A DNA stretch of 64,000 nucleotides from a candidate division WOR-3 bacterium (GCA_965649205.1 CBFGJV010000001.1:19285-83284), one strand, 5' to 3'. Counted from the stretch's first letter, positions 6,902 through 54,780 are shown. The notes: generated by a model from the sequence alone, not told the origin. Translations and numbers: made by a program.

Positions 6902-6914
6902 TAAGGAGGAGAGC

Positions 6915-9900
6915 ATGCGAATACAGAACAGACAGGAAATACGGTTGTTTTTCGGCAACCGCACACTGTTTGCTGCGCTGGTTTTGCTCGTAGCAGTTTC
7001 TTCCGGCTGGGCAAGGACAGCAGGCAAAGCCTGGCGGCCACCGCGTATATTTGACTTCAGATGGTACCAGAAGAACCAGTGGCGTCTGCCCATAACCAAC
7101 TACGCTACTTTTGGATATGGCATTGGTCGTTCGGGTGGTGAGTGGCCCGCAGGTTCTGGCGATATGTACATCTATGGCGCGGGCATCTGGATCGGCTGCA
7201 TCAGACGCGGTCCGGGAGGAAAGGATACGCTGGTATCATGTGGTTATAACCCGAACTCGGGCAAGTCAGAGATGACTCCGGGCGCGTATGACAACGCTAC
7301 AGGCGGTTATGCTGACCGAGGATTTGAGCGAGTTTATGTTTACCCTGGAGACTGGCCGCCGAAGGAATCAGACTTCCCGCCTTCCATGTGGGGCGGTGTT
7401 GAAACTCCTCTGCGCATTAAGGGTGACCCGACTTTCCGAGACACTTTCTATTATGTGCCTCGTAAAGCCACTTCTCTCGGCGATGCCTGGGCGGTGTTCA
7501 ATGATCGGGACCCGGCCCAGCACGTAGCCGGTAAGACGCCCAGGCCTATCGGAGTAGAAGTATATCAGGAGACCTACTCCTGGACCTTGCCGTGGAACAA
7601 GGACATAGTGTTTTTCAAGCTCAATGTGCGCAATCGGACGCAGGATACATTGCGGGATGTGTATCTGGGTATGGCTTGTGATGCTGACGTAGGAAATGCG
7701 GCTGACGACTGGTGCGGTCTGGCGCTGTCCAAGTACATATACAGCCCAGACGGCAGAGATTCGGTCTTTGTGGACAACATGGGTTATGTGTGGAGCAATG
7801 ATGGCGTACCTTCCGGCTTTGTGGGCTTTGACTTCCTCCAGAGTCCTTTCTGGAAAGATGCCAATGGCAAGATGCGTGAAGTAGCACCGGCTCCGGGTCA
7901 GGATTCTATTTACCCGAACGGTTACGACGACAACAACAACGGGCTCATAGACGAACCGGCGGAAGGCAGACAGTTGGGAATGACCGCGTACAAGATATTC
8001 ACCTTGACTGACGCTGACCCCAAAGACGATGTAGAACAATTCCTGGCTCTGGCTGGCTATGACTACTGGGACCCGCAGAGGCCATATAACCCCTACGATT
8101 CTTCTGACCAGGCTGCGGCTGATAAGCGTTTCCTGCAATCCACTGGACCGTTCAATCTGGCGCCGGATGAGATAGCCACAGTAACCATAGGTCTGATTGC
8201 CGCGGACCGGGCAAGAGGCGGACCGCCCGGAACAATGGTTTACAACTTGGCTTTGGCATCCCGTGCTGCGCAAGCCGCCTACGACAACAACTGGATTATG
8301 CCCGAACCCCCGCCCAGCCCGAATGTGACTACTATTCCGGGCGACGGGCGGGTTACGATTGTATGGGACAATCTACCAGAGAACGCCAAAGACCGTTTCT
8401 ATCCGGTTGCGCCGGCCCTGAAGAATCCCTTCTATACGGAGAAAGACTTTCAGGGATACAAGATATACCGCAGCCGTACCGGTCAGCCCGGAGACTGGAA
8501 GCTGCTGGCGCAGTGTGACAAGATAGATGGCATCAAGTACGAAGATAAGAGCGCGCCGGAGTCGCTACGCACCAAAGCCACAGATGCCGGACTATTCTAC
8601 AGTTATGTAGATTCTTCAAACTTGCGACTGGGGTTTCCTTACTACTACGCAGTAACAGCATTCGACGTCAATTACCTGGGAGACACGACAGGCGGCCAGA
8701 AACTGGATACGATGTCGCTGGAGTCGGGCATTACTGCGGTGAGGGCTGTGCCTCGTACTCAACCTTCGAACTATACAGCTCCCGGTGACAGCTGGTGGCA
8801 GGTGGCTGGCAATCCCAAACTTCGGTTAAAGATAAACCCTCTAGCGGTGAGTCCCCATGCAGTAAAAGACCAGACCTATCGTATACAATTCGGGCCTCCC
8901 AGATATGACCCTGTGGCACGAGAACCGGTGTACAGTTTTGTGGTGACAGACGAGGCCGGAGACACGGTGGCAGGCCCCACGAGCTTCGTTGCCGCCATCA
9001 GCCGCACCACCGATACCTTCCGGCTGGTTCCCACAGTGTTTGACTCGGTAATTACACGCATAGCCCGGGTGCGCTCTCCTTCGGGTGACACGGTTATAGA
9101 TACTACCAAAGCCTGGCTGCCGGTAGCGCAGATGGCATTCACTCTGCAGATGGACTCAGTACCGCTACAGTTCTTCCAGAAGATAAGTCTGGTAAAGAAC
9201 GCAGCAGGATACCCGGCGGAATCGCTGGCTTTTCCCGTGCCTACGCAGAATCGGGCTCTCTGGGCTTACCGAGGGTCAACCTATCGGATTGCCTGGAAAA
9301 CGCATCCATCTGGTCGTCTGACCTGCGAGGTTTACGACCTAGAAAACCAGCTGCCTGTACCTTACCGCTACTTCAGTCCGCGCGCAGCCACGCCGGACTC
9401 GGCAGACGGCTGGTGCTTCCGGGATATACGCGATGCGGCAGATACTTTCTCAGTAGGCAAGACCTGGTTTATGTATCTGTGCGGCAGCACGTTCCAGTTC
9501 AACCCAACAGGCGCAGCGGCGTTCTCGCCCGCTGACGGCGATACCTGGCTTGTGTACTCGCGGCCGCTGGCTCCGGCGCCTGTGTTCTCCGCCTTCAATG
9601 TGCGCTTCACCGCGGCCAGATTTGCTAGCAGCAGCGATACGGGCAAGCTTAACGTCAAAGTGGTGCCCAATCCATATCTGGTGCGCAACGAGTGGGAACG
9701 GCACAAGGACTTCCGCAAACTCAAATTCATAAACCTTCCTTCCAAATGCACCATACGCATCTACAACCTTGCGGGCGACCTGGTACGGACGCTTACGCAC
9801 GACGAGACCAATCCTCGGGCTGGCGGTTTGCCCAACCAGTACGGCGGAGATGAAGACTGGGACCTGCTGAACGAGAACAGCCAGAAACCGGCGCCTGGGT

Positions 9901-9968
9901 TGTACCTGTTCCATGTGGATGCCGGGGAGCTGGGCACGCAGGTAGGCAAGTTCGTCATCGTATACTAG
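6915..9968 (+). CDS. large secreted protein (~1017 aa) with T9SS C-terminal sorting domain; possible PorU-like or T9SS cargo
   Basis: ATG at 6915 after an AGGAGGAG RBS, with signal peptide LFAALVLLVAVSSGWA. C-terminal VVPNPYLV...GLYLFHVDAGELGTQVGKFVIVY matches the T9SS CTD. It lies directly upstream of a PorV/FadL-like beta-barrel gene, which is the porU-porV synteny seen in Bacteroidetes. Confidence 0.6.
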   Translation: MRIQNRQEIRLFFGNRTLFAALVLLVAVSSGWARTAGKAWRPPRIFDFRWYQKNQWRLPITNYATFGYGIGRSGGEWPAGSGDMYIYGAGIWIGCIRRGPGGKDTLVSCGYNPNSGKSEMTPGAYDNATGGYADRGFERVYVYPGDWPPKESDFPPSMWGGVETPLRIKGDPTFRDTFYYVPRKATSLGDAWAVFNDRDPAQHVAGKTPRPIGVEVYQETYSWTLPWNKDIVFFKLNVRNRTQDTLRDVYLGMACDADVGNAADDWCGLALSKYIYSPDGRDSVFVDNMGYVWSNDGVPSGFVGFDFLQSPFWKDANGKMREVAPAPGQDSIYPNGYDDNNNGLIDEPAEGRQLGMTAYKIFTLTDADPKDDVEQFLALAGYDYWDPQRPYNPYDSSDQAAADKRFLQSTGPFNLAPDEIATVTIGLIAADRARGGPPGTMVYNLALASRAAQAAYDNNWIMPEPPPSPNVTTIPGDGRVTIVWDNLPENAKDRFYPVAPALKNPFYTEKDFQGYKIYRSRTGQPGDWKLLAQCDKIDGIKYEDKSAPESLRTKATDAGLFYSYVDSSNLRLGFPYYYAVTAFDVNYLGDTTGGQKLDTMSLESGITAVRAVPRTQPSNYTAPGDSWWQVAGNPKLRLKINPLAVSPHAVKDQTYRIQFGPPRYDPVAREPVYSFVVTDEAGDTVAGPTSFVAAISRTTDTFRLVPTVFDSVITRIARVRSPSGDTVIDTTKAWLPVAQMAFTLQMDSVPLQFFQKISLVKNAAGYPAESLAFPVPTQNRALWAYRGSTYRIAWKTHPSGRLTCEVYDLENQLPVPYRYFSPRAATPDSADGWCFRDIRDAADTFSVGKTWFMYLCGSTFQFNPTGAAAFSPADGDTWLVYSRPLAPAPVFSAFNVRFTAARFASSSDTGKLNVKVVPNPYLVRNEWERHKDFRKLKFINLPSKCTIRIYNLAGDLVRTLTHDETNPRAGGLPNQYGGDEDWDLLNENSQKPAPGLYLFHVDAGELGTQVGKFVIVY

Positions 9969-9977: not shown

Positions 9978-11027
9978 ATGAAAAGGTTCAGCAAAGCGAC
10001 AAGAATAATCAGAATTGCGTTTCTGTGTGTTTTGGTGCTGGGAACATTCGCCAGTTCTCAGGCGGCGTTTGCCAAGATAGGCATGGCCGGACTCACCTTC
10101 CTGAAGATAGGAGTGGGGCGCAGCACAGGAATGGGAGATGCCTTCGTCGCTGTGGCGGATGACGCCACAGCTGCGTATTGGAATCCGGCCGGGCTGGCCC
10201 TAGTTTCGGGCAGGCAAGCGCTGGTAAACCACATAGATTGGATAGCGGACGTCAGCCACGAATACGTGGCAGTCGTACTACCCGCAGGGCAGGGAAATCT
10301 GGGCATAAATGTCACCGCGCTATCAATGGGCAAGATGGAAGAGACCACCCTGGAGCGCTATCAGGGCACTGGTACTTTCTTCACGGGCACAGACCTGGCC
10401 CTGGGCGTGTCTTATGCCCGGATGGTAACGGAGAAACTGTGCTTTGGACTGACTGCCAAAGTTCTATCTGAAAGAATCTGGGACGTTGGTGCAACCGGCG
10501 CAGCATTCGACCTGGGAGTACACTACAATACCGGCTGGCGGAACTTGCGCCTGGCGATGGCTATTGCCAACTTCGGGCCAGACCTCTCCTTCCACGGCAG
10601 CCAGTTGAACTTCATGCACGACCCCGACTGGGAATGGCCTTGGACGCGGGAACCCATACCCGGCACCTATCTTACCGAGAACTTCTCTCTCCCCGTGATA
10701 TTCCGCTTCGGCGTGGCATATGACTTCATCAACGACGAAAACTCACGACTCACCGGCGCCGCGGACCTCAATCACTACAACGACGTAAACGAGAAAGTCA
10801 ACCTCGGGCTGGAATATGTTTACCGCATTCTCTCTCTCCGGGGTGGTTACATAGTGAACACCGATGCCAGCTATGCCTCAGACTTGGGCATTCGGGCCGG
10901 TCTTTCGGCAGGGATGGGTCTGAAACTAAAGCCGGCGGAGAATCTGGGGTTAACTCTGGACTACAGCTATCGTGACCTGGCGCGACTTGGGGGTTCGCAC
11001 AGATTCACGCTGCTGGTTGATTTCTAA
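9978..11027 (+). CDS. FadL/TodX/PorV-superfamily outer-membrane beta-barrel protein (PorV/PorQ-like)
   Basis: Signal peptide, then the N-terminal motif GMGDAFVAVADDATAAYWNPAGLA that is typical of the FadL/PorV superfamily. Ends in an aromatic residue (LLVDF). Lies 10 bp downstream of a CTD protein. Confidence 0.55.
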   Translation: MKRFSKATRIIRIAFLCVLVLGTFASSQAAFAKIGMAGLTFLKIGVGRSTGMGDAFVAVADDATAAYWNPAGLALVSGRQALVNHIDWIADVSHEYVAVVLPAGQGNLGINVTALSMGKMEETTLERYQGTGTFFTGTDLALGVSYARMVTEKLCFGLTAKVLSERIWDVGATGAAFDLGVHYNTGWRNLRLAMAIANFGPDLSFHGSQLNFMHDPDWEWPWTREPIPGTYLTENFSLPVIFRFGVAYDFINDENSRLTGAADLNHYNDVNEKVNLGLEYVYRILSLRGGYIVNTDASYASDLGIRAGLSAGMGLKLKPAENLGLTLDYSYRDLARLGGSHRFTLLVDF

Positions 11028-11098
11028 ACCAATCCGAACGCTTTATGACCAGCTCGGGATTCCCCGGGCCGGTCTCGTTTTATATGGCAACCGCACTT

Positions 11099-11273
11099 GT
11101 CGGTAGGTGAGATTCGGAATGTCAACTGCTACTGTCAAGCGTAAGAACAAAACTTCCCGACTACGTGGTGTCGGTAGGTGAGATTCGGAATGTCAACTGC
11201 TACTTGGCACGACTCGGCAAAGCATTGCAGGCAGTGGGTGTCGGTAGGTGAGATTCGGAATGTCAACTGCTAC
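11099..11273 (+). CRISPR. CRISPR mini-array: 3 direct repeats of 34 bp (GTCGGTAGGTGAGATTCGGAATGTCAACTGCTAC) separated by 2 spacers (37 and 36 bp)
   Basis: Identical repeats at 11099-11132, 11170-11203 and 11240-11273. Spacers are 11133-11169 and 11204-11239. The repeat starts 5'-GTCGG and ends ...CTAC like Cas12b repeats (e.g. Alicyclobacillus GTCGG...GGCAC). It is adjacent to cas2-cas1-cas4-cas12b. Confidence 0.85.
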
Positions 11274-11339
11274 AGCGCGTGACCGAGGTTGTTGTTCCAT
11301 GCGAACTTGGAATGCATTTTGCGAGAATCTGCAGGAGGT

Positions 11340-11490
11340 GCGCCGCAAACTTTCAGTTTTGCAGGTATGCCTACTGACTAACTTCAGTTAGTAGCAAATC
11401 TTATTCTTCTGCGAGCATCCCTTGACCCCCGTTGCACCACCTGCATGCTCGCACTCCAGATTGTCAGAGAGCAGTTGACTTTCCTATTAT
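11340..11490 (+). ncRNA. candidate tracrRNA between array and cas2: two hairpins plus 3'-proximal anti-repeat
   Basis: Hairpin 11371-11394 (ctactgact...agttagtag, 9 bp with one G-U pair). Hairpin 11410-11418/11445-11453 (tgcgagcat/atgctcgca). Anti-repeat AGCAGTTGACtTTCC at 11470-11484 is complementary in 14 of 15 nt to the repeat segment GGAATGTCAACTGCT. Strand and exact ends are not resolved. Confidence 0.5.
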
Positions 11491-11619
11491 CTACCACTCG
11501 GTGCCAAGGCCGTTGAAGGCGACGACACGTTCCGAGTATTCTGCACCCCTCTAGGATGCGGTTTAAGTATATGTGCCGAAAGGAAATCGTCAAGTGTATC
11601 CGGAGTCGAGCTTCGGAGG

Positions 11620-11910
11620 TTAGACTATGATAGTGCGTTCTTCACCTTCCGGTAAGGGCTGTCCGAGATTCGTGGCAGCCTGGCGCGCCGCAGCTTCGTC
11701 CGCGCCGAGGTCTATAATCAGTGCCTGGTCTTCTTTGAGGTTCATGGCTTCCTCCAGGGCAGACTGCATACGTACGCGGTCAATCTCTTTTAGAGTGCAG
11801 AAGAAGACCGAGTACTGCCAGTGTTCTCCGTAGCCTTTCATTATCTTGAAGACCCGGCGCCAGCGCGCCGGGCTGGAGATGTCGTAACAGACAAGATAGG
11901 AGCGACGCAT
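11620..11910 (-). CDS. cas2: CRISPR-associated endoribonuclease Cas2
   Basis: MRRSYLVCYDISSPARWRRVFKIMKGYGEHWQYSVF matches the Cas2 fold signature. The ATG start overlaps the cas1 TAA stop (TAATG). Confidence 0.85.
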   Translation of the reverse strand: MRRSYLVCYDISSPARWRRVFKIMKGYGEHWQYSVFFCTLKEIDRVRMQSALEEAMNLKEDQALIIDLGADEAAARQAATNLGQPLPEGEERTIIV

Positions 11911-12896
11911 TAGCGAGTAGTCAGGAAGGAGAGAGTGGAGATTTCTCCTGTGAGCCACGCGGCGATCATCTTAGCGTGGAGATAAAGCATTCGGCGATAG
12001 CTCAAACGGTAGTCGAATACCGGATGAGTGACAATTGTATCCATTCTGCGCGCAAAGGCTTTGAAGAATGCTTTGCGGCCAGCTTCGGTGAAATTGCAGC
12101 CAGCCACAGTGTCGAGGAAGTGACCGCCGGTAAGTTCTTCTTTGTTGAATGCGGTGATGGCGATTGAGTCGGCGATGATGGGCCGAAATGGTTCCATCAG
12201 GTCTAGCGCCAGGGCGGGACGGCCGGGACGAGACACATGGAAACCACCGATGGAAGGTTCCAGCCGGGCCATTCTGAGCGCAGCGGCGCATTCAAGACAT
12301 AGCATTGAGTACGCCATCGAAAGGCAGGAGTTTACCGGATCAGGTGGTGGTCGGCGGGAGCGGCCGTTGGCGTCAAAGCGTGACGCTTCCGGCCCCTTGA
12401 GCATTCCGGCGAAATGCTGAAAGTACAGCGCAGCAGCCTGACCTTCGTGACTGCGCAGATTGTCAAGGGATTCGGCGACCCGGGCTTTTTCTACTTCCTG
12501 CGCCATTTGGGCCAGGACGGATGCAGGCAGAGAAGGATGGTTGCGCATCAGGACTGTGCGCTGATTCTGAATTTTGGCGGTGATGAGTGCGCGGGCGAGT
12601 TCCAGGCACTTTTCCGGACGGTCAAGTTGGCGCACTTGTTCCCGGCGCATCTTGGCACTGACCGAGTCCATAGGGTCGATCATTGCCACAAGCCTGCCAG
12701 CTGCGGAAAGATACGCTACTGGTACACATTGGTCGGCTAATGCATGAAGAGCCTGGGTAGAGACCTGCACCGGTCCGACAACAACAAGTCCTTCGAGCCC
12801 GGCGAGTGGAATCTGGCGTTGAGTTACACCCTTGCGGTCTATTACTTCAAGTGCCATCCCGGTGATGCCAATTCTCGTTCCTTGGGACAGTGCCAC
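11910..12896 (-). CDS. cas1: CRISPR-associated integrase Cas1
   Basis: Conserved C-terminal Cas1 block GRSRRPPPDPVNSCLSMAYSML...LDLMEPFRP. GTG start overlapping the cas4 TAG stop. 328 aa. Confidence 0.9.
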   Translation of the reverse strand: MALSQGTRIGITGMALEVIDRKGVTQRQIPLAGLEGLVVVGPVQVSTQALHALADQCVPVAYLSAAGRLVAMIDPMDSVSAKMRREQVRQLDRPEKCLELARALITAKIQNQRTVLMRNHPSLPASVLAQMAQEVEKARVAESLDNLRSHEGQAAALYFQHFAGMLKGPEASRFDANGRSRRPPPDPVNSCLSMAYSMLCLECAAALRMARLEPSIGGFHVSRPGRPALALDLMEPFRPIIADSIAITAFNKEELTGGHFLDTVAGCNFTEAGRKAFFKAFARRMDTIVTHPVFDYRLSYRRMLYLHAKMIAAWLTGEISTLSFLTTR

Positions 12897-13639
12897 TAGC
12901 TGAATACCCTCGTCACGGGGCGGCCACAGCTTGCGGGGTGTGGTTTGTTCAGTTTCGGTTTGGCCGCGCTGGAAGTTGATTTCGTCCGGCAGGCAGATGG
13001 GGAGAAGTGAACACCGGGGCAGCGCGGGTCATTGACGAGAGGGAGAGGGCGGGGGCCTTCGGCGCACTTCTTAGCCGCCTCAAGTATAGTCAGCGCTTCG
13101 TTGCGCAACTGCTGGTCAACCGGAATAGTGAGCTTGCGCTTTTCCTCAGCATAGTACAGCACCGCTTCATTCACTGTGTATCCAGCTTCTTCCAACAGAA
13201 GTGCCTGCAGTCCTACTTGAATCCGATCCGCAGGCCAAGGCGCAACTACCGTCAATGGTGGTGAATCTGCTTCTTCAGTCTCCTCGGGTGGTGGGGCGAT
13301 GGAAAGGTGTTTTGGCGCGCCTTTGCGGTATTCTACTGGTGTGGCCGTGTTACCAAAGATTTCAGCCAAGTCAAGAACGGCGCTGATCCCGAGCCGGGTA
13401 CTGGAAAGAGCGAGGGAACGGATGGATTTCGGTCTGTCCGGGTCTTCGTCAGATTCGGTCTCTTCTTTCCTGTCAGACGGAGCGCAGCTCGGTCGGTCAA
13501 CCCAGCGGTGGACCGCACAACCTTGCTCGGTGTCGGGTGAGGGCAGAAAGATGCCCTCAACTGCCATATAGTAGAATAGACGCGGGCAGTAGGCGTACTC
13601 GGCGACGTTGCGGCAGCCCCAGAGTTCAGACTCGCTCAC
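12896..13639 (-). CDS. cas4: Cas4 RecB-like exonuclease with Fe-S cluster
   Basis: N-terminal YCPR motif (AEYAYCPRLFYY), plus three C-terminal Cys (KKCAEG, RCPG, SACR) that complete a 4-Cys cluster. The gene sits between cas12b and cas1. Confidence 0.8.
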   Translation of the reverse strand: MSESELWGCRNVAEYAYCPRLFYYMAVEGIFLPSPDTEQGCAVHRWVDRPSCAPSDRKEETESDEDPDRPKSIRSLALSSTRLGISAVLDLAEIFGNTATPVEYRKGAPKHLSIAPPPEETEEADSPPLTVVAPWPADRIQVGLQALLLEEAGYTVNEAVLYYAEEKRKLTIPVDQQLRNEALTILEAAKKCAEGPRPLPLVNDPRCPGVHFSPSACRTKSTSSAAKPKLNKPHPASCGRPVTRVFS

Positions 13640-13642
13640 AGA

Positions 13643-16600
13643 CTACAGACCGGCCCACTCACGCAGGCGTTCAATAACCCGGAATTTCACCTTATTCCAG
13701 TACTCGATGGAGCTCTGCCAACTGTCGGATTCAATTGCTGCGGCTGACACATCGCGCCAGGCGTTGACCACGTCTTTGTCAACGGTTTCACTGAGTAGTT
13801 GCCCATTCAGGTCGAATGCCTTCGTACCCTTACACCTGTCCTTTGCCGGCTTGCCGTTCCTGCCGCAGGGGATCCACCACCACCTACCTGGCCAGTCCGG
13901 GTCCAGGAGCGCGCGCAGGCCGATGTTGGCGGCAGCATTGAGGTCGGCCTGGATGCCTTTGGACGCGGGCGAGTTTCTGTCCGCCGAGACGAAAAGTTCA
14001 CCTGAGCGGTCAAGAATCCGTACCAACTTTGTGTTGTCGGTGCAGCCGTCCCACTTCGCCTTGAGTGCTTCGAGGTACTCGTTTTCTGCTCCCGCGGCGT
14101 TTTTGACCAGCCGTTCGTAGCGCCTCAGGAATTCCGGCACAGGCAGGTCTGTGCATCTTGCGCCCGGCGCGCCGGTGCGGGAATCCTGCCGGGAGGTGTA
14201 ATTGGGTATTACTTGGCGGAGGTGCAGGCCATTCAATTCGCAGGCTTCTTTCAGATACCTGAGAACTTTTACCGCTGACCACTGCATCAATTGACGGTTC
14301 TCGCGGCGGGTGCGGATCTGCTCAGGTCGATAGGAATCCAGATTTTCAACCACAACGGCATGGCAGGGTTTAAAGCGAGGTTCGACGATTGGTTTCTGAG
14401 GCCGCTTACCCCCTTCCCAATGTTTCTTGTCTTCGGAACCGATGCCCAGCGCGGCTTCCACAATTCTGGAAGCCAGTTGTTTCACCCGGTTCTCGCGCAG
14501 ATGTTCTAGTGTATTAAGGACTCGCTGGCCGTAGTTATCCAATCGTATGTCCCCTTTTTCGGGTGTGTTTCTGCGAATGTCTTCCGGCTCCGGTCTTGTC
14601 GTGTACGCTTTCATGGCTTGCCACAATTCGCGGATGTTTGCGAGTCGGTCCAATGACAGGCCACCTACGTGTCGGATAGAGGCATCGGATTTCGGTCTGC
14701 CGCGGGGCAGTAGCCAGTTACGAAGCCAGCGAAGATGACCTTTCCATTGTTTGTCATCTTCGCGCCAACGTGTGGCCCAGATAGTGTGTAGCTTCATCCG
14801 TAACTGGGGATTGCCGGCTAGTTTCGCCGCATAGTCAGTCAGTAGTTTGCGAAGATTCCTATTGTAAGTCTTGAGGTCGGCTTGCGTTGCGTCTTCGCCT
14901 GGCGCGGGTGGAAGTTCCGCCTGCACGTATGTGTGCCACATTTCCTTGGCCCAGTCGTCGCGCCAGCGGGGGCTTTGGAACAGACTCTGCCAGAGTATCA
15001 GGGTGTCTTCTAGGAACTCTCGGCGCCTGTCCGAGGTCAATTCTTCCCAGCGGTCGCCTGGTAGCGGCTTCCGGTCGGTTTTCAGGTTAAAAGCAATTCG
15101 AGCTCGATCGCCATGGCGGCGAAGTCCGAGCCGGGCGGTGTGGACCGCATCAGCCATCAGGCTGACTATGTTGTGAGGCAGAGGGTTGTCTTTCGTTCGG
15201 ATGCGACCGAGCCAGGCTTCGAACTGCTGCACTGCTGCATATTCATCAGGCGATGCCTTCCGGCCGGTTTCATTTTCGCCCTGCAGTTTGATAAGGAATT
15301 GCCGGTCGAGTCTTGCCCACATATCCGGGCCGGTACGACGGTAAATTGTCCTAAGTCTCTTACCGTTTTGACTGAGGAGCAGATGCAGGGCAAGGTCACC
15401 GGGTTTCGGCGGCTTTCGCCCGGCCTCTACGCAGAGGCGGGTCATCTGCTCTTCGGTAAGGGTCTCCCAGACCGCACAGGCTGCCGCGTAGCGGTGGCCG
15501 AGGTCCAGTGATAGCACACGAAAGCCCGGGAATACGGCATAGCATAAGAGTGGCATGCCCTTTCCGTCCTTTATTGTCTTCAGCGTGCGGCCAGGCTTGC
15601 GGGTCCTCGTCCAGGTTGAGTCTGCGGGCCAAGGTTGCCCAAGGGCCGGCTTCCTGTGTCTGCAGGCGGCCAGAGAAGGTGATGAACCAGTTCAGGCCGT
15701 TGCGCATTTTAACAGCTTTTGCATCCCAGCCATGCTTCTGCACGCGTCTGGCTAGCCGGTCGAGCTGGGCGCGGGGCGCCTGCAGGCGGCCGTTCCAGTC
15801 CTTCTCGACGAATACATTTAGGACAAGCACAGCTGTTTCGCTGCCGATGCCGGCTGCGGCGCGGCTGAGTCGGTCGGCGCGGCTAACCCGGACACCATCC
15901 GGAGCCTGTTCTAACATTAGATCAGCAACAAGCCGCTTGGACTGCCAGAGCATTGCGGTTCTGCCAAGCGATGAGCCTGTTACGGTACGTAGCGTAAGCC
16001 GCCGGTCGGACAGGGCGGCGCGGAATCGCGCGCGGGCTTTTTCAAGTTGTTTCTGTGCCCTGAGTAGCTGGGTGGGCATTTTTTCACCAGTGGTTTCGCC
16101 ACAATACGCGAGAGACTGTTTTAATCCGTCCACTTTCAAAACCGCTTTCAGGCAGGAGTTCGCAGCTTTGTGTACGGCAAAAGAAATTGCCCAGCGAGAC
16201 TTGCCGTAGTCGCAGAACACCGGATGAGATAATGGATGAGGATGACGATAGGCCGGGACTTTGAAGCGGCGCATCTTCGCCTGGGCGTCGCGTGCGTTAA
16301 CATAGTCAAGGAGCGGCTGCGGGTCGGGTCTGCCGTTGCGCAACCAGACGATGCTGGCGCCTTCTGCAGACAATGCCTCGAACAGAGTTATGTCGCCGAA
16401 CTTCTCGATTTCGTCCTGCAGTTCTCTGGCCGCAGCCTTGCGGTCTTCGGCGGTGCGGCAGTCTCTTGCAGACCAGGCTTTCACAATTTCTTCCCAACTT
16501 TCTACCGCCCGGGGCTGAATTTGGAGCGGGCCGACCGCACCAGTCAGGCGGCCACGTTCTTCCAAGAATTCGTCCAGCCATTGTTCCACATCGGTCGGAA

Positions 16601-17816
16601 CCTGCTTTTGGGCCTGTTCCGCTAACTTCTGGCGGTTGGCTTCGGCCCGTTTTTGCCAGGAGTGGGCGGAGGAAACCCTCCTGAGTGCGAGATCCAGCAT
16701 TACCGAGTACTCGTCTGTCAGGTTCCGGCCACAGACAAAGGGTAGGCCGGTGGCTTTCTCGACGCGGGCGCGCAATGTCTCGGCCCATTTGGGCACGTTT
16801 CTAGCACCCTTTTTTATTTTCTCCATTTTCTCGTCGGCCTCGGCTGCCAGTTTGGCCTGCATAGTTGAGATCGTATCCGATGTTAGTACCGGCATGGCGT
16901 AAACTTTCTCAATAGCCAGTTTTCCCTGCGAGGGGCGACCTTTCCATCCGATGGCTTTGTAGATGCTGCTGAGCAAGTCTCCCTTTTCCGTCGCCTGAAG
17001 AAGTGTCAGAAGGTGGCTAGCCAAGGCAGAGCCGGACTGACCCTCGTAGTGGCTCAGGTCCGCAGTAGCAAGCGTGCGCAGCTTTTCTGCTATTCGCTCC
17101 AGGTCGCTTTTTTCTCCAGTTCCCCAACAGTTCACGATCCAGCTGCGAGCCTTCTCTCGAAATTTTGTTTCGTGCGCGGCCGCCGCGGTTGATCCGGATT
17201 CTGGTAGCTTGAGGAATTCGTCTAAGTCCCCAAATAACTCTCTAATCGCCGACTGCGCTTGTTCCCTGGTAAGGGTCTTATCGTTCTGCGCTTCCACGTC
17301 GAATGCCTTGGCGCGGTTGACCCAGACCGCGTCTTCTCGAATGGCGGCACAGAGCGAATCTTTGCAGTCGGCAACCCAGGTCTCGATTTCCTCCTTGGTC
17401 AGACCACGTGAGGCGAGAACTTCCTAGAGCGCGGCAACGATTTTGCACTTGCGGTCGGGCGCGGCGTCTTTGCCGGTGGCCACGATGTACTCGGCCGGAG
17501 CACCGTCGGCGGATTCAACCGAGAGCCAGGAAAGTGCGAGCATTATACGACGGTGACGAGTTTCTTGGTCGTCGGGACGGCGTTCGGTTTTCTTCTGGCC
17601 TTTTCCTTCGGTTACCGATAGCTCTGTAAGACGGTGGTCCAGACCACCGCGGAGGGTGAGGAGCCAGTCAGCGAAGACCTTGGTTCCCTTGTTGATTGTC
17701 TCGTGCGTACGCCATAGTGCCTCGCGCCAAGCCTCATCTTCGCTTCCTTCTCTGCCCGGTATGCCGCGCAGGCGCAGCGTGTAGGCCCGTTGGGTAATTG
17801 TCGCAGACGTCGTCAC
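13643..17816 (-). pseudogene. cas12b: cas12b (C2c1) type V-B effector, ~1390 codons, interrupted by an in-frame TAG (17424-17426) and a 1-nt frameshift near 15556-15563
   Basis: Three co-linear ORFs: 17816-17424, 17297-15396 and 15556-13643. The N-terminus LWRTHETINKGTKVFADWLLTLR resembles Cas12b LWKLHKEVNAGVRYYTEWLSLLR. RuvC-I is FRVLSLDLGHRYAAA, RuvC-II is AVVVENLDSYRP...RENRQLMQWS, and the Nuc/RuvC-III region is RCTDLP...WDGC...ADLNAAANIGLRAL; all three match Cas12b. The first and second ORFs share a frame, separated only by TAG. The second and third differ by +1, with the frames diverging at the homopolymer ccc/ttt (15558-15563). Confidence 0.85.
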
Positions 17817-17849: not shown

Positions 17850-18230
17850 GTGGGAAAATTGGATTTGTCAAGAGAGCGGCGGGAGGGTAGCAAGGTAGGC
17901 GGTTCGGGGAGCAGGAAGGGGATTACTCCACCAGGCGGCGGGCGGGGCGCATCAGAGGGCAGGAAGGATAGTAGGTCGCTGCATGGGAGAGTGGGCGGGT
18001 CGGTGAGGGACTCGGCGGGCGGGTGGGCTATTGGACGGGGGAGTTGCCGGGTCTGCGGCCGGGAGGACTACGGGGGATACGGACCGGTGGGCAGGTGGTG
18101 GAGTGGCTCAGGGAGCGGCGGAGCGGGCAGGAGACCGGGTTATCCGGAGAGCCACGGAGGGAGCCGCTGGGGGAGCTGGGGAGGGGGGTAACGGAGGATT
18201 TCAGGTATCAGATTGTGGTGCAAGGAGTTA
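17850..18230. repeat. G/A-rich, C-poor low-complexity tract (GGGNGGG, GGCGGGCGGG runs) in the divergent cas12b / HTH intergenic region
   Basis: The plus strand is dominated by G runs, i.e. the cas12b-sense strand is C-rich. The ORF-track protein here is Gly-rich nonsense. On the cas12b-sense strand the tract shares CCGCCCGCC/CCCACCC motifs with the 45.6-kb C-rich tract. Confidence 0.6.
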
Positions 18231-18255
18231 GGTCGCTAAGAAGCCTTGCGGACCG

Positions 18256-18273
18256 TAATACTAATGAGTATTA
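18256..18273. promoter_or_regulatory. near-palindromic operator TAATACTAATGAGTATTA 10 bp upstream of the XRE regulator start
   Basis: 9+9 inverted repeat with one mismatch. A perfect version, TAATACTCATGAGTATTA, recurs at 62189-62206. Confidence 0.6.
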
Positions 18274-18283
18274 TCAAGTCTGT

Positions 18284-18646
18284 ATGGGCCGCAGGTATGT
18301 GCAGGATTCTTTCTACTTCCCGCAGGCGCTGGGCGAGCGGCTGCGGGAGCTTAGGCTGCGGGCGGGCCTGACCCAGAAGGAGCTGGCAAGTATGGCCGGG
18401 CGGGAGTTTCGGGGCGGGCAGGCCATGGTGAGCAGGCTGGAAAGAGGCCGCATTCGGAGCCCTTCTTTGCGGTTGGTGGCGGATTTTCTGCGGGCCTGTC
18501 GAGCGAGTTTTGACGACATCCGCGATGTCCTGCACGCCTACACGGCGCAGCCATTGGTGGCGGAGAAGCGGGCAAGAAGGGCGGTGCAGAGACTGGTGGA
18601 GGTTTTGCCGGAGGGTGTGGCGGGAAGGTGGATAAGTACGATGTGA
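18284..18646 (+). CDS. XRE-family helix-turn-helix transcriptional regulator
   Basis: HTH_XRE signature LRELRLRAGLTQKELASMAG...VSRLERG. ATG at 18284. The upstream part of the ORF-track frame is G-rich non-coding. Confidence 0.75.
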   Translation: MGRRYVQDSFYFPQALGERLRELRLRAGLTQKELASMAGREFRGGQAMVSRLERGRIRSPSLRLVADFLRACRASFDDIRDVLHAYTAQPLVAEKRARRAVQRLVEVLPEGVAGRWISTM

Positions 18647-19425
18647 AGACGGCAGTGTGGCGTCGGCACCAGGGAGATTTGCCGGAGGCAGAGGCGGCAC
18701 GGTTGGAGAGAGTGAGGGGAATGGCTCAGCAGTTGCTTTTGCGGCAGAAGTTGGAGGAGAGGTTGCATATTGCCCTGAATCATATCGGCGCCAGGCGGGG
18801 CGGGCCGGCAAGAAAGGCGCTGGCCGATTTTGGTCGCAAGGTTTGGGCTATTTTGCGCCGAACGCGGGCGCAGCCAAAGAAGAGGGCGTACCTTTTGTCT
18901 GAGGCGGGCGAGAAGCTGAGGCAGGAACGGGTGGTGACAGACGAGGCCATACGTTATATCGAAACCGTGACGTGCGAGCTTTTTGCGGAGCTGGAGCAGA
19001 AGGGCGAGTTGGATCGCTTGCCGAGCGTAGAGGTCACAGAGGGGCTGCTGGCCAAAAGGGCGGGGGAGCGAGTTATGCGAGATGAGCAGATGTGCGCGGA
19101 GGAGTGGAGAAAGCAGTTGCGGGAGTACGAGCAGGCGCGGGAGCGAATGCTGAGACAGGTGCTGGACGAAGCGAGACCGTTGTTTGCGGAGAAGGGAAAG
19201 CAGGAGGAGGTATTCTATATTGGCGTGGTAAGAGGTTGTTTGTATGCGGCGCAACGGACGCGGGCGGGGAGTAAAGAGCGGGAGCAGGCAACAGAGGAAG
19301 CGTTGCAAGTGGTACGCAGGAAAGGGCTGGATGTAGAGTTGGCGCGACAGGTGGCCGAGTTTGCCTTGCGCAGGTTTGACGAGTTGCTGCGTTTTCTCCC
19401 GCCGAATCCCCGGACGCAGCTCTGA
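18628..19425 (+). CDS. hypothetical Arg/Glu-rich alpha-helical protein (265 aa), operonic with the HTH regulator
   Basis: GTG start overlapping the HTH gene end by 19 nt in another frame. Highly charged, coiled-coil-like composition with no recognisable motif. Confidence 0.45.
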   Translation: MDKYDVKTAVWRRHQGDLPEAEAARLERVRGMAQQLLLRQKLEERLHIALNHIGARRGGPARKALADFGRKVWAILRRTRAQPKKRAYLLSEAGEKLRQERVVTDEAIRYIETVTCELFAELEQKGELDRLPSVEVTEGLLAKRAGERVMRDEQMCAEEWRKQLREYEQARERMLRQVLDEARPLFAEKGKQEEVFYIGVVRGCLYAAQRTRAGSKEREQATEEALQVVRRKGLDVELARQVAEFALRRFDELLRFLPPNPRTQL

Positions 19426-19483
19426 GCGAAGCGCGGAAATGACATTTGTTTGACGGCGGTGGAGTTTCTCTTACACTTGGGCT

Positions 19484-20149
19484 ATGAGTGAAATTTTGCG
19501 TCGAATTGCCCGAGCAGTGGAGTCAGGTCACAGCGATGCTGCATCGCCGTATCCGCCAGATATGGTGGGTGAGCCTGGCGTAGATGAACTGACTCGGCAG
19601 GCTTTGGCAGAAGGCATACAGGTAAGGCGGTTGTTGTATGAGGGTCTGGTGGCGGGAATGAAGGCTATTGGCGAGAGGTTCAGCGAGGGGAGTGCGTTTC
19701 TGCCCGAGGTTCTGATGGCGGCGCGGGCTTTGGCTGCGGGCTTTACACATCTGCAGCCGTACTTTTCGTCTGGCGCAGTGAAGCATAAGGGGACGGTGAT
19801 TCTGGGTACAGTACAGGGCGACTTGCACGATATCGGCAAGAAGATTGTGGGTCTGTTTTTTAACGGGGCAGGGTGGAGAGTGGTGGATTTGGGCGTGGAT
19901 GTGCCGCTGGAACGGTTTCTGGCCGCAATCGAGGAGCACAAGCCGCAGGCAGTGGGCTTGAGCACGCTCTTGACTACGACTATGCCGAGCATGGCAAAGA
20001 TTACGGCTGGCATAAAATCCCGGTATCCAGAGTTGAAGGTGGTGGTAGGGGGTGCGCCTTTGACTGCTGAGTTTGCCGCCAGCATAGGGGCGGACTTTTA
20101 TGGCGCGGACCCGCAGATGGCCTTAGACTATCTGGACGGTGCGGTATGA
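19484..20149 (+). CDS. corrinoid (cobalamin-binding) protein, MttC/MtbC-like
   Basis: B12-binding DxHxxG motif (QGDLHDIGKKIV) and a Rossmann B12 domain. ~220 aa, typical of methyltransferase cognate corrinoid proteins. Confidence 0.85.
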   Translation: MSEILRRIARAVESGHSDAASPYPPDMVGEPGVDELTRQALAEGIQVRRLLYEGLVAGMKAIGERFSEGSAFLPEVLMAARALAAGFTHLQPYFSSGAVKHKGTVILGTVQGDLHDIGKKIVGLFFNGAGWRVVDLGVDVPLERFLAAIEEHKPQAVGLSTLLTTTMPSMAKITAGIKSRYPELKVVVGGAPLTAEFAASIGADFYGADPQMALDYLDGAV

Positions 20150-21231
20150 CGAGCAGGGAAGTTATTACCGCGTTGGTGAGGGATAAGGAATGTCCCGAAC
20201 GAGTGGGGCATCAGGAGAGTTTTTGGGAGGACTTGCGACCGGCCTGGGAAGAGCAGGGGTTGCCGCGCGAGGGCCGCATGCAGGAGATTCTGGACTTGGA
20301 TATTATTCCCATAAACGAAGAGTGGACCAGCACCGAGGCGCGAGTGGGCTACAGGCGAATTCTGGAGGAGACAGAAACAACCTATGTGGAAGAGAACGGT
20401 TGGGGTTCGGTGATGCGTTATTGGAAAGGAAAGTCTGGCACCCCAGAGCATCTGTCCTTTGCCCTGACCGACGAGAAGGTATGGAAGGAGAAGTACCGGG
20501 ACCTTTTGACGAGTTTTGATATCCGCCGTCTGGGAGACCTGGAAAGATTGAAGAAGAGGTATCGCGAGCTGGAGTCTTCGGACAAGTTCCGGGTTTACGA
20601 GGTGCTGCAGATATTTGAGATAATGCGGCAGGCGATGGGCGATGTGATAATGCTGGAGGCGATGTGTTTGAATCCGGCCTGGATAACGGATTTCTGCACG
20701 GTAATGACCGATAACATCATTATGCACCTGGAGTATGAGATACGGGAGGTTGGCCTGCCGGACGGTATCTGGTTCTATGAGGACCTGGGTTATCGGCATC
20801 TGCCTTTTGTCTCGCCGCAGATGTATAGAGACCTTCTGCTGCCGCATCACCGTCGGTTTGTGGATTTCTGTCACAGTTATGGTCTGCCGGTGATAATGCA
20901 TACCTGCGGCAATATCGCTCCTCTCTTTCCTTATCTTCTGGAAACGGGTATAGATTGTTTGCAGCCGCTGGAAGCCAAGACCGGGCAGAATTTTATCAAG
21001 ATGGCCGAACTGGCTTCCCGGCGCATAGCTTATATGGGGAATATGGATATCCGGGCGTTTGAGACTAATGACCCGCAGGCCTTGGCGGCAGAAATTTTGC
21101 CCAAGCTGCAGGCGGCGATAGAGAAACGGATACCTTACATTTTCCATTCCGACCACAGTATTCCCCGTACGGTCAAGCTGGCCACCTATCGCTACGCCCG
21201 AGCGTTGGTTGATGAGTACGGTCGTTACTGA
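20146..21231 (+). CDS. uroporphyrinogen-decarboxylase-family methylcorrinoid methyltransferase (MtaA/MtbA/MtgA-like)
   Basis: 361 aa with URO-D fold features. The context between a corrinoid protein and an MttB-family gene indicates a corrinoid:acceptor methyltransferase. Confidence 0.65.
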   Translation: MTSREVITALVRDKECPERVGHQESFWEDLRPAWEEQGLPREGRMQEILDLDIIPINEEWTSTEARVGYRRILEETETTYVEENGWGSVMRYWKGKSGTPEHLSFALTDEKVWKEKYRDLLTSFDIRRLGDLERLKKRYRELESSDKFRVYEVLQIFEIMRQAMGDVIMLEAMCLNPAWITDFCTVMTDNIIMHLEYEIREVGLPDGIWFYEDLGYRHLPFVSPQMYRDLLLPHHRRFVDFCHSYGLPVIMHTCGNIAPLFPYLLETGIDCLQPLEAKTGQNFIKMAELASRRIAYMGNMDIRAFETNDPQALAAEILPKLQAAIEKRIPYIFHSDHSIPRTVKLATYRYARALVDEYGRY

Positions 21232-21246
21232 AACTGAGGGGGAAAA

Positions 21247-22707
21247 ATGAGACCAAAGTTGAAGCTGCTTAGCGAGGGACTTGTTGAGCAGATTGTAGCC
21301 GAGGCACTGGACCTGCTGGCCGTGTTGGGAGTAGAAATAAACAACCCCGGGCTGGTTGAACTGCTGTTGGCCCAGGGCGCAGAATGGGATACCGAGAAGA
21401 AAAGGTTGCTGTTGCCCGAGTCCATGGTGAGGCAGGCTTTGGCTGCTGCTCCGTGTTCGTTCCGGTTGTATGATGTGCGAGGGGAGATGACAAATGAACT
21501 GGGGGGTGATAATGTGTATTTCACCCCGGGTTCTGCGGCGTTGAACATTCTGGATGCAGATACCGGCGAGATGAGACGACCACAGACGCGTGATTACGTG
21601 CAGTATGCCAAGCTGGTGTCGCGTTTAGAACACATTGCGGCCCAGTCCACAGCCCTGATACCGGCAGATGTGCCGGAGAAGATTTCGGACAGCTATCGGT
21701 TGTATCTGTCGTTGCTGTTCTGTGAGAAGCCGGTGGTTACCGGCTGTTTTACGATAGAGTCCTTTCGAGTAATGAAGGAAATGCAGGTGGCGGTGCGGGG
21801 TTCTGAAGAGGAGCTTGTCGCCCGGCCCCTGACCATTTTTTCCTGCTGTCCGACCGCGCCTCTGAAGTGGAGCGAGGTGACTTCGCAGAATGTGGTGGAT
21901 TGTGCGCGGGCCGGTATCCCGGTGGAGTTTATCTCCATGCCTTTGTCCGGCTTTGTGGCGCCTGTCACCCTGGTGGGCACTTTGATTCAGCATACGGCGG
22001 AGACCCTGTCGGGTGTGGTTATCAGTCAAACAGTCGCGCCGGGTTCGCCGATTCTTTATGGCGGTTCGCCGGCGATTTTTGATGTGCGCCGAGAAACTAC
22101 CCCGATGGGCGCCATAGAGACGATGATGATTGACTGTGCCAGTGCAGAAATAGGTAAGTACCTGGGTTTGCCCACGCAGGCTTACATCGGTCTTTCCGAC
22201 GCGAAGCTGCTGGACGCACAAGCCGGGCTGGAAACAGGCATCGGCGCAGTTCTGGCCGCCTTGGCAGGCGTGAACAGCGTGTCTGGTCCGGGCATGCTGG
22301 ATTTTGAGAGTTGTCAGAGTCTGGAGAAGCTGGTGCTGGATAATGAGATATGCGGCATGGCGCTGCGGCTGGTGCGGGGTATTGAGCCGCACGAGGACTT
22401 TCCGGCCTTGAATCTTTTCACCGAACTGTTGAGTGAGAAACATTTGCTTATCAGTCCGCATACCAGGCGCTGGCTGAAGACAGAGCACTACTTTCCCGGG
22501 CCGGTGATAGACCGGGCAAACAGAGGACGCTGGCAGGCTGCCGGTAGTCCTACTCTTTTGGCACGGGCGCGCCGGGAAAAGGAGCGCTTGATCGCCAGCT
22601 GGCAGCCGTCCCGTCTGGCAGAAGAGACAAAAAAGGAACTTACCCGGCTGATGACCACAGAGGCCCGGCGCTGGGGGATGGAACAGCTGCCAGAACTGCC
22701 CGCATGA
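21247..22707 (+). CDS. MttB-superfamily (non-pyrrolysine) quaternary-amine:corrinoid methyltransferase (MtgB/MtqB-like)
   Basis: 486 aa, the length and architecture of the trimethylamine methyltransferase family. Uninterrupted ORF with no in-frame amber codon. GGGAAAAATG RBS. Confidence 0.75.
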   Translation: MRPKLKLLSEGLVEQIVAEALDLLAVLGVEINNPGLVELLLAQGAEWDTEKKRLLLPESMVRQALAAAPCSFRLYDVRGEMTNELGGDNVYFTPGSAALNILDADTGEMRRPQTRDYVQYAKLVSRLEHIAAQSTALIPADVPEKISDSYRLYLSLLFCEKPVVTGCFTIESFRVMKEMQVAVRGSEEELVARPLTIFSCCPTAPLKWSEVTSQNVVDCARAGIPVEFISMPLSGFVAPVTLVGTLIQHTAETLSGVVISQTVAPGSPILYGGSPAIFDVRRETTPMGAIETMMIDCASAEIGKYLGLPTQAYIGLSDAKLLDAQAGLETGIGAVLAALAGVNSVSGPGMLDFESCQSLEKLVLDNEICGMALRLVRGIEPHEDFPALNLFTELLSEKHLLISPHTRRWLKTEHYFPGPVIDRANRGRWQAAGSPTLLARARREKERLIASWQPSRLAEETKKELTRLMTTEARRWGMEQLPELPA

Positions 22708-30901: not shown

Positions 30902-32224
30902 TTATTCCCCGGGCTTTATTTCTACTTTACCCCTAGGGCCGCGAGTAAGTATTTCCGTGAGCAACCCGGAACACTCCAGGGAGTTGTTGCGCACATCAAT
31001 GACGACTATGTTGTAGTAGTACCGTCCGTCAGCCACAAGTCGGCCGGAATCATCCAGACCGTCCCAGCTGATGCGCAATGGCGGGTTGTCCCACCCCTGA
31101 AAAGTGCGTACTAGCTCGCCGTAGCTGTTCTTTATGAGAATCTGCCAGCGTTTAGGTCGGGCTCGCGGCTGAAGCCGCACGTCCATCCAGAGGACGTTTC
31201 TGTCGTTGTCTGGTGTGGGTCTGAACACGGCCGGGGTAGCCTCTATCCAGACGCGGAAGCCAGAAAATCCAAGGTAGAGCCCGGCTTTATGGGTAGGGGC
31301 TAGGCGATAGCGGGATTGGTGATGAAGCAGAACGGCGTAATCAACGCCTATAGACATCCTGCCCCAAGACTTGTGAATACCCAATCCTAGACTCAGGTCA
31401 TTGGGGTCCATGCCGATCCGTTGATAGAGTACATCGGGCACGAGTTCGATTTCTGCCCCTCCTCGCAGCGCAAAGCGCGGAGTAAAGTTGCGCGTGGGGT
31501 TACCTAGTTCATCCCGGTTATAGAGCAGAGGCAGGGAAACGTCTGCAGTAAGAAGAGCGCGGCCACCGAGTAGGTGTACTGCGGTTCCAGCACGCAGGAT
31601 ACGTGGATAGTTTTCCGGCAAAGTAGCTAGCTGCAATCGAGGCTGGAGCACATTTTGAAAGCAGAGGCCGAAGCTCAGAGGCGAAGGTCTAGTGAGGAGA
31701 ATGCCCAAATCTGCTCCCAGGCCGACGGCAGAATACTGCGCCATGTTTTTGGAAACGAGCTTGCCTGTCATTCCTAGTCCGAGGAAGTTAGTAGGGTTGT
31801 AGCAGTACGACATCAGGTAAGAATTCTCCAAATAAAAGAAATTTTGGTAGGGATAGTTGTCAGGGGTACGCGACTGCAGTCCACCGGCCCAGTAACTGGC
31901 TAGGTTCACGCCGAAGGTACCCCAGTCTCGGGTAGGAAGAGCGTAGGCGATGTATTCCATCTGCGCGCCGTAGAGCTGAGAGTGGGCGAGTACCACTTCG
32001 TTGGCGTTCAGCTGAAACAGACCACCAGGGTTGAAGTAGACTGCCTGTACGTCGTCAGCCAGAGCGGTGAAAGCCTTACCCAGGGCCAGACTGCGGGGTG
32101 ACGGAGCGTAGGAGAGCATGGCACCGGGCAGACCACCTTCTGCGTAGAGCAGAGTAAAGAGACAGAAAAAACAAGTCAGACAGAGGCCAACGTGTGTGTG
32201 GGTACTCCTTGCCTGTCTTACCAT
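30902..32224 (-). CDS. FadL/PorV-superfamily outer-membrane beta-barrel protein with C-terminal FlgD/Ig-like domain
   Basis: ATG at 32224 immediately after the upstream gene stop, and a signal peptide. Motif LGKAFTALADDVQAVYFNPGGL parallels the YWNPAGL motif of the other barrel. C-terminal ISWDGLDDSGRLVADGRYYY resembles an Ig-like fold. Confidence 0.5.
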   Translation of the reverse strand: MVRQARSTHTHVGLCLTCFFCLFTLLYAEGGLPGAMLSYAPSPRSLALGKAFTALADDVQAVYFNPGGLFQLNANEVVLAHSQLYGAQMEYIAYALPTRDWGTFGVNLASYWAGGLQSRTPDNYPYQNFFYLENSYLMSYCYNPTNFLGLGMTGKLVSKNMAQYSAVGLGADLGILLTRPSPLSFGLCFQNVLQPRLQLATLPENYPRILRAGTAVHLLGGRALLTADVSLPLLYNRDELGNPTRNFTPRFALRGGAEIELVPDVLYQRIGMDPNDLSLGLGIHKSWGRMSIGVDYAVLLHHQSRYRLAPTHKAGLYLGFSGFRVWIEATPAVFRPTPDNDRNVLWMDVRLQPRARPKRWQILIKNSYGELVRTFQGWDNPPLRISWDGLDDSGRLVADGRYYYNIVVIDVRNNSLECSGLLTEILTRGPRGKVEIKPGE

Positions 32225-33972: not shown

Positions 33973-34060
33973 AGACTTGGGACAAGGTGAAAAAGGAGGG
34001 TGTTCCGTGGGGATAGATGAAAAGCGAAGAAGTAGTAGCACATCAAACAGGAGGCTGGCC

Positions 34061-43205: not shown

Positions 43206-43297
43206 AGTTTTAGCTTAGAGTCTTGGCGATGTTGTCGGCTAATACTGTCTCGGTGAAGCATCCTAATGCTCTGTTTCTTTTGGGTGAGCTAGCAGCA

Positions 43298-54676: not shown

Positions 54677-54780
54677 AATCCTGGGTCCTGTTTGTAGCTT
54701 GACATCATAATTGTTTCGGGTGTAATCTATACGCGTGCATACCGGAAACAGACCCGACAGAGTAAGTAGGGGAGACCATC

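Follow-up and report, generated by a model that had tools for sequence, protein, structure and literature searches.

A type V-B CRISPR-Cas locus of the large Cas12b1 clade, most likely inactive and decaying, in a candidate division WOR-3 bacterium

Can a CRISPR-Cas locus (CRISPR, short palindromic repeats that are clustered and regularly interspaced) that holds every part of a type V-B system still work when its effector gene is in pieces, and how novel is the effector it encodes? The question is raised by a 64,000-nucleotide (64-kb) stretch of DNA from a candidate division WOR-3 bacterium (GCA_965649205.1, CBFGJV010000001.1:19285-83284), which we call the window and to which all coordinates refer. 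Its minus strand carries, at 11096-17816, a cas12b gene, an adaptation module, a gene for trans-activating CRISPR RNA (tracrRNA), and a small CRISPR array. A first-pass annotation had proposed such an all-minus-strand locus, and each of its parts is present. We read it as a type V-B locus of the large Cas12b1 clade, resembling that of ChCas12b, the enzyme of a Candidatus Hydrogenedentes bacterium, and as one that is most likely inactive and decaying.

What kind of effector is this? Joining the open reading frames (ORFs) of the interrupted gene gives a repaired product of 1390 amino acids (aa). On the NCBIfam equivalog model for Cas12b (NF033949) it scores 828.8 bits (cut-off 150; E=1.1e-248), in a single stretch covering profile positions 1-1252 of 1253. 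PADLOC places Cas12b at the top (E=4e-217), the best of the other subtypes being Cas12i at 1e-8, and Pfam detects the C2c1 RuvC-like domain. Among solved structures the best match is 9kln_A, which is ChCas12b (E=7.4e-287, 958 bits, residues 7-1384 aligned), whereas those of AacCas12b and BthCas12b reach E values of only 1e-15 to 1e-20, mostly in the RuvC half. These four sources agree on the type V-B assignment made in the first-pass annotation, and on profile and structure matches alike the effector is a genuine Cas12b. The motifs on which that assignment had been built (LSLDLG, VVVENL, and ADLNAAANI) all occur in the protein, in register with the catalytic positions D771, E1157, and D1291, and the pairing of the N-terminal helix with AacCas12b (LWKLHKEVNAGVRYYTEWL) was reproduced by HMMER alignment.

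Is the protein unusually long, and does it come from a poorly sampled group, as had been suggested? The length of about 1390 residues stands once the gene is repaired; the word “unusual” does not. Homologues at E<=1e-10 numbered 471 in a protein search, and the best 120 of them, with 96-100% query coverage, range from 1375 to 1583 aa (median 1470), which puts the window protein at the short end of a large clade. Nor can the group be called poorly sampled: beyond the 471 homologues, Cas12b relatives occur in 131 GTDB species genomes of the Planctomycetota, Hydrogenedentota, Acidobacteriota, Verrucomicrobiota, WOR-3, and other phyla, and the nearest GTDB Cas12b fragments belong to WOR-3 metagenome-assembled genomes (MAGs). 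The large (~1500 aa) Cas12b1 clade, with its additional domains and distinct adaptation module, was described in 2023 by Altae-Tran et al. (PNAS, PMC10691335). For ChCas12b itself (1496 aa), four complexes solved by cryo-electron microscopy (9KLN, 9KLO, 9KLP, and 9KLQ) and a mutational analysis are available (Li et al., NAR 2025, PMC12204704), and the same paper cites, as its reference 38, earlier work on gene editing with ChCas12b-D496A.

By these comparisons the window protein is a member of the ChCas12b-like large Cas12b1 clade. Besides the best structure match, it has in common with ChCas12b the catalytic triad, residues G230 and G290 of the cleft for the protospacer adjacent motif (PAM), a homologous tracrRNA scaffold with stems 1-3 and a GUGUC:GACAC repeat:anti-repeat duplex, and a CRISPR RNA (crRNA) handle ending ...CGACAC. 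It differs in being ~106 aa shorter, in having ~36 extra OBD residues (~553-599), which are common to P0001-P0007, the intact homologous effector proteins used for alignment, and in lacking, together with its sub-branch, ~40 residues found at ChCas12b ~884-938; moreover, the window gene is interrupted twice and its product is known from sequence alone. With the Cas12b1 clade of PMC10691335 it shares the added helical subdomains, the length class, and an encoded adaptation module. Within that clade at large it probably sits in a short sub-branch with its nearest database relatives (P0001-P0005 and P0007), which are 1381-1395 aa long and 46-60% identical to it. The classical C2c1 enzymes AacCas12b and BthCas12b (1108-1137 aa; 5U30, 5WQE, 5WTI) are of the same subtype by profile; their RuvC-II/III and Nuc regions align at E ~1e-14, and the N-terminal helix LW.TH..N.G aligns too, whereas beyond the RuvC half only short, weakly scoring stretches align, and the window protein is ~260 aa longer. 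The residues that ChCas12b has in excess of AacCas12b sit, as its structure paper describes (PMC12204704), in helical-Ia/Ib, the OBD, RuvC, and helical-II.

What, then, has happened to the gene? Its coding sequence now falls into three ORFs (17816-17424, 17423-15396, also called as 17297-15396, and 15556-13643), of which the first two share a frame and are parted by an in-frame TAG, and the third lies in the +1 frame. The TAG is codon 131, so that 130 residues of Cas12b precede the stop, and it falls in a variable column where homologues carry R, A, K, Q, H, or E. The second lesion, seven codons ahead of the RuvC-I aspartate, is one inserted T, which turns CTT CGT into CTTTCGT (CTT/T/CGT); translation gives ...GRKGHATLMLCRIPGL in frame 0 and RVLSLDLGHRYAAACAVW (RVLSLDLGHRY...) in frame +1, and both match the homologue consensus GHAKLVLSRLPGLRVLSVDLGHRYAAACAVW (family consensus GHAKLVLSRLPGLRVLSVDLGHRY). 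A frameshift junction at ...GRKG/MPLL... was rejected because the homologue alignment puts it 11 codons downstream, at PGL/RVLS. Intact homologues P0001-P0005 are single ORFs across both sites. The first-pass annotation had counted these two effector lesions correctly; what it missed is a third in the locus, a deletion in the adaptation genes.

In L001-L003, the loci of relatives that we compared gene by gene (L001 being the closest), one Cas4-Cas1 protein of 571-585 aa is encoded. After ...NDPRCPG the Cas4 frame of the window ceases to make sense, and the -1 frame takes over with RCSLLPICLPDEIN..., in agreement with DPRCPRCSLLPLCLPDEIN in L001; the deletion falls within the Cas4 iron-sulfur (Fe-S) cysteine motif C-x2-C-x5-C (DPRCP/RCSLLPICLPDE, the slash marking the break). 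When one C is restored, a 576-aa ORF results whose product scores 616.6 bits on NF049935 (Cas4g/Cas1g; cut-off 560) in one stretch over profile positions 3-546 of 546, whereas the unrepaired pieces score 164 and 389 bits, both under the cut-off. Both domains named in the proposed cas4-cas1 gene order are therefore present, but not as separate genes: judged by profile and by relatives, they are one cas4/cas1 fusion gene split by a frameshift. The fusion matches the full Cas4g/Cas1g model above its cut-off and has the architecture common to L001-L003; it departs from the model in its frameshifted Cas4 cysteine cluster and in accompanying a type V effector and not a type I locus. The cas2 gene is intact, with an open frame at 11620-11958 whose likeliest start, the ATG at 11910, gives 96 aa, the length of Cas2 in L001-L003; this ATG overlaps the cas4/cas1 stop by one base, as in L001. 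Wherever “cas4” and “cas1” are annotated as adjoining ORFs in the large Cas12b clade, we recommend a check for a fusion gene that has been broken.

Are the RNA parts still in order? A tracrRNA is required by AacCas12b and BthCas12b. The ChCas12b single guide RNA (sgRNA) differs in topology from the type found with those two enzymes (PMC12204704), and it is to its scaffold, taken from primers in that paper, that ~90 nucleotides (nt) of the window align at 11560-11470, with cggaacgtgtc..ccttcaa.gg..tggcaccg common to both. The predicted tracrRNA has three stems, with a GUGUC segment between stems 2 and 3, and an anti-repeat in two parts (GGUAG ... GUCAACUGCU) that is complementary to CUACC and AGCAGUUGAC of the repeat. 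Its putative promoter lies directly downstream of cas2, and TTGAC..TAxxCT is found in the same place in L001, L002, and L003.

A consensus fold recovers stems 2 and 3 of ChCas12b with compensatory changes. Five sequences went into the covariance model R1, which reaches 83.5 bits in the window. In 65 of 83 related loci it has a single match on the same strand as cas12b, located after cas2 or directly after cas12b. Across these matches stems 2 and 3 are 99.5-99.7% paired, and the stems contain 127 double-change cells, compared with 30 in shuffles and 3-14 in slid controls. The GUGUC segment is invariant and shows no covariation, which fits its pairing with the crRNA 3' handle GACAC in the ChCas12b structure (PMC12204704). 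The minimum-free-energy fold of the region is no better than that of shuffled sequence (z=-0.64), and the predicted tracrRNA structure is supported by covariation, not by such a fold. The claim of a tracr region next to the array is thus borne out by scaffold homology, the R1 match, and anti-repeat complementarity; R1 locates this RNA in the majority of the clade's loci, whereas no Rfam family matches either the repeat or the tracrRNA. A GCGAGC...GCUCGC hairpin at ~11405-11445 on the minus strand, between the anti-repeat and the array leader, is conserved in L001-L003 and has no T-run after it; it might be the 3' end of the tracrRNA or a leader element.

The array is separated from cas2 by 346 nt. 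Its 37-nt direct repeats lie at 11096-11132, 11167-11203, and 11237-11273 (spacing 70-71), and its spacers at 11204-11237 and 11133-11167. On the minus strand the repeat reads GTAGCAGTTGACATTCCGAATCTCACCTACCGACAC, with the distal copy degenerate at its 3' end; it resembles the L003 repeat GGAGCAATTGACAATCCGAACCTGAACCACCGACAC (31+ copies there) and ends in GACAC, like the ChCas12b crRNA handle. Exact matches to the spacers were absent from viral contigs, and within the 64-kb window neither a second copy nor any self-targeting was seen; with no protospacer for either spacer, the PAM is not inferable from them.

Could the catalytic site and the PAM-reading residues still serve? In the repaired frame, and only there, the single RuvC site is complete: D771, E1157, and D1291 correspond to ChCas12b D767, E1220, and D1364, whose mutation weakens or abolishes cleavage (PMC12204704), and to AacCas12b D570, E848, and D977. 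ChCas12b makes staggered cuts in double-stranded DNA under the guidance of crRNA and tracrRNA, and needs a T-rich PAM on the 5' side, TTN (PMC12204704). Of its PAM cleft, G230 and G290 are conserved in the window protein, whereas the contacting loop P289-G290-Y-K292 reads K-G-R-P, with P289 and K292 replaced; more fully, the PAM-reading loop is W-K-G-R-P-S in the window protein, P0002, and P0004, against G-P-G-Y-K-S. As these residues differ, TTN should not be transferred to the window protein. The rewritten loop and the ~36-residue helical insertion in the OBD could also be taken to mean that the short sub-branch is a functionally distinct Cas12b variant, an idea we regard as a long shot. If it were true, the PAM might be other than TTN and the repaired gene would be a new editing scaffold. 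Speculatively, the divergent loop could interest enzyme engineers.

Are the lesions real? All three (the TAG nonsense codon, the +1 T insertion, and the C5-to-C4 deletion) are in cas genes, and none of their sites is interrupted in any relative examined (P0001-P0005 and L001-L003). Elsewhere ORFs without interruption, the longest of 1197 aa, tile the window. Of 25 other ORFs scanned, 21 have a family match, and the strong matches cover the whole profile or domain, running end to end for Mfd, formate-tetrahydrofolate (THF) ligase (3-556 of 557), and PorV. Five same-strand ORF pairs or triplets looked suspicious, yet wherever a family matched, each ORF holds a complete domain of its own (ExbD, ExbD, ExbB, MvhD/FlpD, HdrA-like, and MttB); the pair at 54263-55334 had no family match. 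Since the lesions are confined to the cas genes and none was found in the other genes examined, they point to decay specific to this locus rather than to general sequencing error; and since interference and adaptation genes are both hit, the locus is best read as degraded, with both functions presumably lost in this genome. Its catalytic residues, tracrRNA, promoter, and repeats are still intact, so the decay appears recent. Of 251 columns that are near-invariant in the family, the effector also differs at 13 (family median 2), and ~7 of these departures, all within the N-terminal 770 aa, are absent in its nearest relatives; the excess is suggestive, not decisive, as a sign of relaxed selection. 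Treating the lesions simply as something to repair, as the first-pass annotation did, was incomplete in that there are three of them, restricted to cas genes, in a locus that looks degraded.

Several observations weigh against this interpretation. Two of the lesions alter the length of a short homopolymer (T2 to T3 and C5 to C4), and the source is probably a MAG, in which a nonsense substitution and indels could be artefacts, especially at a strain-variable locus. The absence of lesions elsewhere rests on profile coverage for the 25 scanned ORFs and on ORF continuity for the others. Two intact homologues, P0004 (13) and P0005 (10), have departure counts similar to that of the window effector. 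As to the likeness to ChCas12b, the PAM of the window protein may differ from TTN. One may accordingly ask whether the locus is functional and its lesions are errors of sequencing, assembly, or consensus, a view with which the intact catalytic triad, tracrRNA, promoter, repeats, and cas2 would agree. We consider it unlikely, though serious enough to keep in mind: the window has 676 homopolymer runs of at least 4 bases, yet no other examined gene is frameshifted; under a uniform lesion model, the cas genes, with 6.2 kb or 10% of the 61 kb of coding sequence, would receive three of three lesions with p ~0.001; a stop-creating substitution is atypical of indel error; and the tiny array (two spacers, compared with the 31+ of L003) independently suggests decay. 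Metagenome scans for the neighbourhood of the TAG, with that codon wildcarded, and for the repeat found no match. On balance the three lesions are probably biological, a genuine and recent pseudogenisation, and not products of assembly.

Might the interruptions instead be tolerated or programmed, through stop read-through and ribosomal frameshifting, or by way of a split effector? The split would comprise a REC/OBD fragment and a RuvC/Nuc fragment of 637 aa; the start of the latter, an ATG at 15556, precedes the RuvC-I motif by 11 codons and has the purine-rich GGAAAGGG upstream of it. That stretch, however, simply encodes conserved K/R/G residues, and the TAG would still remove residues 1-130 with their conserved N-terminal OBD strand and helix. 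Because no relative examined is interrupted at any of the three sites, no conserved recoding signal is apparent, and we hold such recoding or splitting to be very improbable; a natural split Cas12b made of the unrepaired fragments is more remote still than the distinct variant considered above. The MttB-family methyltransferase cluster in the window had raised the possibility of TAG decoding as pyrrolysine, which was rejected: no TAG interrupts the frame of the MttB homologue, TAG stops 12 of 41 window genes, and the window contains no tRNA(CUA). As for the identity of the effector, it could in principle be another Cas12 subtype or a TnpB-like transposon nuclease, since TnpB-type models match its RuvC region alone, below their cut-offs (TIGR01766 at 26 bits; guided_TnpB at 18.6 bits, cut-off 100), and Cas12i, Cas12f, and Cas12h match weakly. 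We give this almost no credence. Neither another subtype nor TnpB was the best match, and the RuvC and Nuc motifs are in register; Cas12b models, which extend over the entire protein, lead by >200 orders of magnitude, a Cas12b is the solved structure nearest to it, and a ChCas12b-type tracrRNA and a Cas4/Cas1-Cas2 module adjoin the gene. A decaying Cas12b locus remains the reading we prefer.

How would an intact locus of this kind work? By analogy with ChCas12b, a promoter of its own, just past cas2, would drive the tracrRNA, which would pair with the 3' part of the repeat through GUGUC:GACAC and GGUAG:CUACC duplexes and a distal 10-bp duplex. The complex of Cas12b, tracrRNA, and crRNA would then recognise a 5' PAM and form an R-loop, and the single RuvC site (D771/E1157/D1291), with two metal ions, would cut both DNA strands, while new spacers would be acquired by the Cas4/Cas1 fusion and Cas2. 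In this genome, translation of the effector would end after 130 residues, its REC/OBD and RuvC/Nuc halves would be out of frame with each other, the Cas4/Cas1 protein would be split inside its Fe-S cysteine motif, and the array appears to have shrunk to two spacers. The coordinates of the individual features are given in Table 1.

Table 1. Features of the type V-B locus in the window, with the basis for each call
Feature	Position	Strand	Product or basis
cas12b pseudogene	13643..17816	-	Repaired product 1390 aa; Cas12b profiles, PDB 9kln_A, end-to-end alignment with intact 1381-1395-aa homologues
Lesion 1, in-frame TAG, cas12b codon 131	17424..17426	-	Reading-frame analysis and homologue alignment
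Lesion 2, one-base T insertion (+1 frameshift)	15521..15523	-	Comparison with intact homologues
RuvC-I Asp D771	15503..15505	-	Alignment to ChCas12b D767, AacCas12b D570
RuvC-II Glu E1157	14345..14347	-	Alignment to ChCas12b E1220, AacCas12b E848
RuvC-III Asp D1291	13943..13945	-	Alignment to ChCas12b D1364, AacCas12b D977
cas4/cas1 fusion pseudogene	11910..13639	-	Repaired product 576 aa; two ORFs, 12896-13639 (Cas4-like) and 11910-12896 (Cas1-like)
Lesion 3, one-base deletion, C5 to C4	13016..13019	-	Comparison with L001 fusion protein
cas2, 96 aa from ATG at 11910	11620..11910	-	Pfam CRISPR_Cas2 E=1e-16, TIGR01573
Putative tracrRNA promoter, sigma-70-type, TTGACG-16-TATACT	11566..11593	-	10/12 matches; conserved in L001-L003
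Predicted tracrRNA gene	11470..11560	-	Homology to ChCas12b sgRNA scaffold; covariance model 83.5 bits
Leader region, tracrRNA to array (putative leader function)	11274..11469	-	Conserved in L001-L003
CRISPR array, 3 repeats / 2 spacers	11096..11273	-	Direct-repeat detection

What does the locus add? It would be one more, apparently dead, member of a well-populated Cas12b clade that already has a cryo-electron microscopy structure, a defined sgRNA, and reported genome editing, and its meaning beyond annotation is little. It does indicate that WOR-3-type bacteria carry ChCas12b-like V-B loci, and it probably shows an early stage of CRISPR-Cas decay, at which genes for interference and for adaptation are damaged and the RNA genes are intact.

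Two architectures occur in the large Cas12b clade among related loci L004-L083. In one, as in the window, the tracrRNA lies ~2.1-2.5 kb past cas12b, behind cas4/cas1 and cas2; in the other it lies ~50-100 nt past cas12b, with no adaptation genes between. L001 has, at 4193-4756, a 187-aa ORF between cas12b and cas4/cas1 with a weak match to PF05635 (23S rRNA intervening-sequence protein), which is absent from the window, L002, and L003.

On the other side of the effector gene, and divergent from it, 17850-19430 on the plus strand includes a G-rich stretch (GC skew +0.34 in 18001-20000). The ORF at 18023-18646 has a weak match to an XRE/antitoxin-type helix-turn-helix, and a 265-aa ORF at 18628-19425 has no family match; neither has a counterpart beside cas12b in L003, and a link of these ORFs to the CRISPR locus is not supported.

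The wider window is in keeping with the named origin: its formate-THF ligase (52128-53792) shares 75-79% identity with proteins that bear the name candidate division WOR-3. That the lineage bears a type IX secretion system (T9SS), as the first-pass annotation had stated, agrees with a PorV/PorQ-family gene, a PorU-like protein, and several large secreted proteins with T9SS type A sorting or FlgD-Ig-like C-terminal domains; as a group these genes lie at 1077-2852, 6879-9968, 9978-11027, 30902-34125, and 55421-58957, and the PorV/PorQ-family gene directly adjoins the CRISPR array. A methyltransferase cluster at 19484-22707 on the plus strand encodes a corrinoid protein (best match glycine-betaine-type MtgC), an MtaA/CmuA-like protein, and an MttB-family protein of the non-pyrrolysine kind, and HdrA-like and MvhD genes lie at 40786-43214. 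Together with the formate-THF ligase, these genes hint at methyl-group and one-carbon metabolism.

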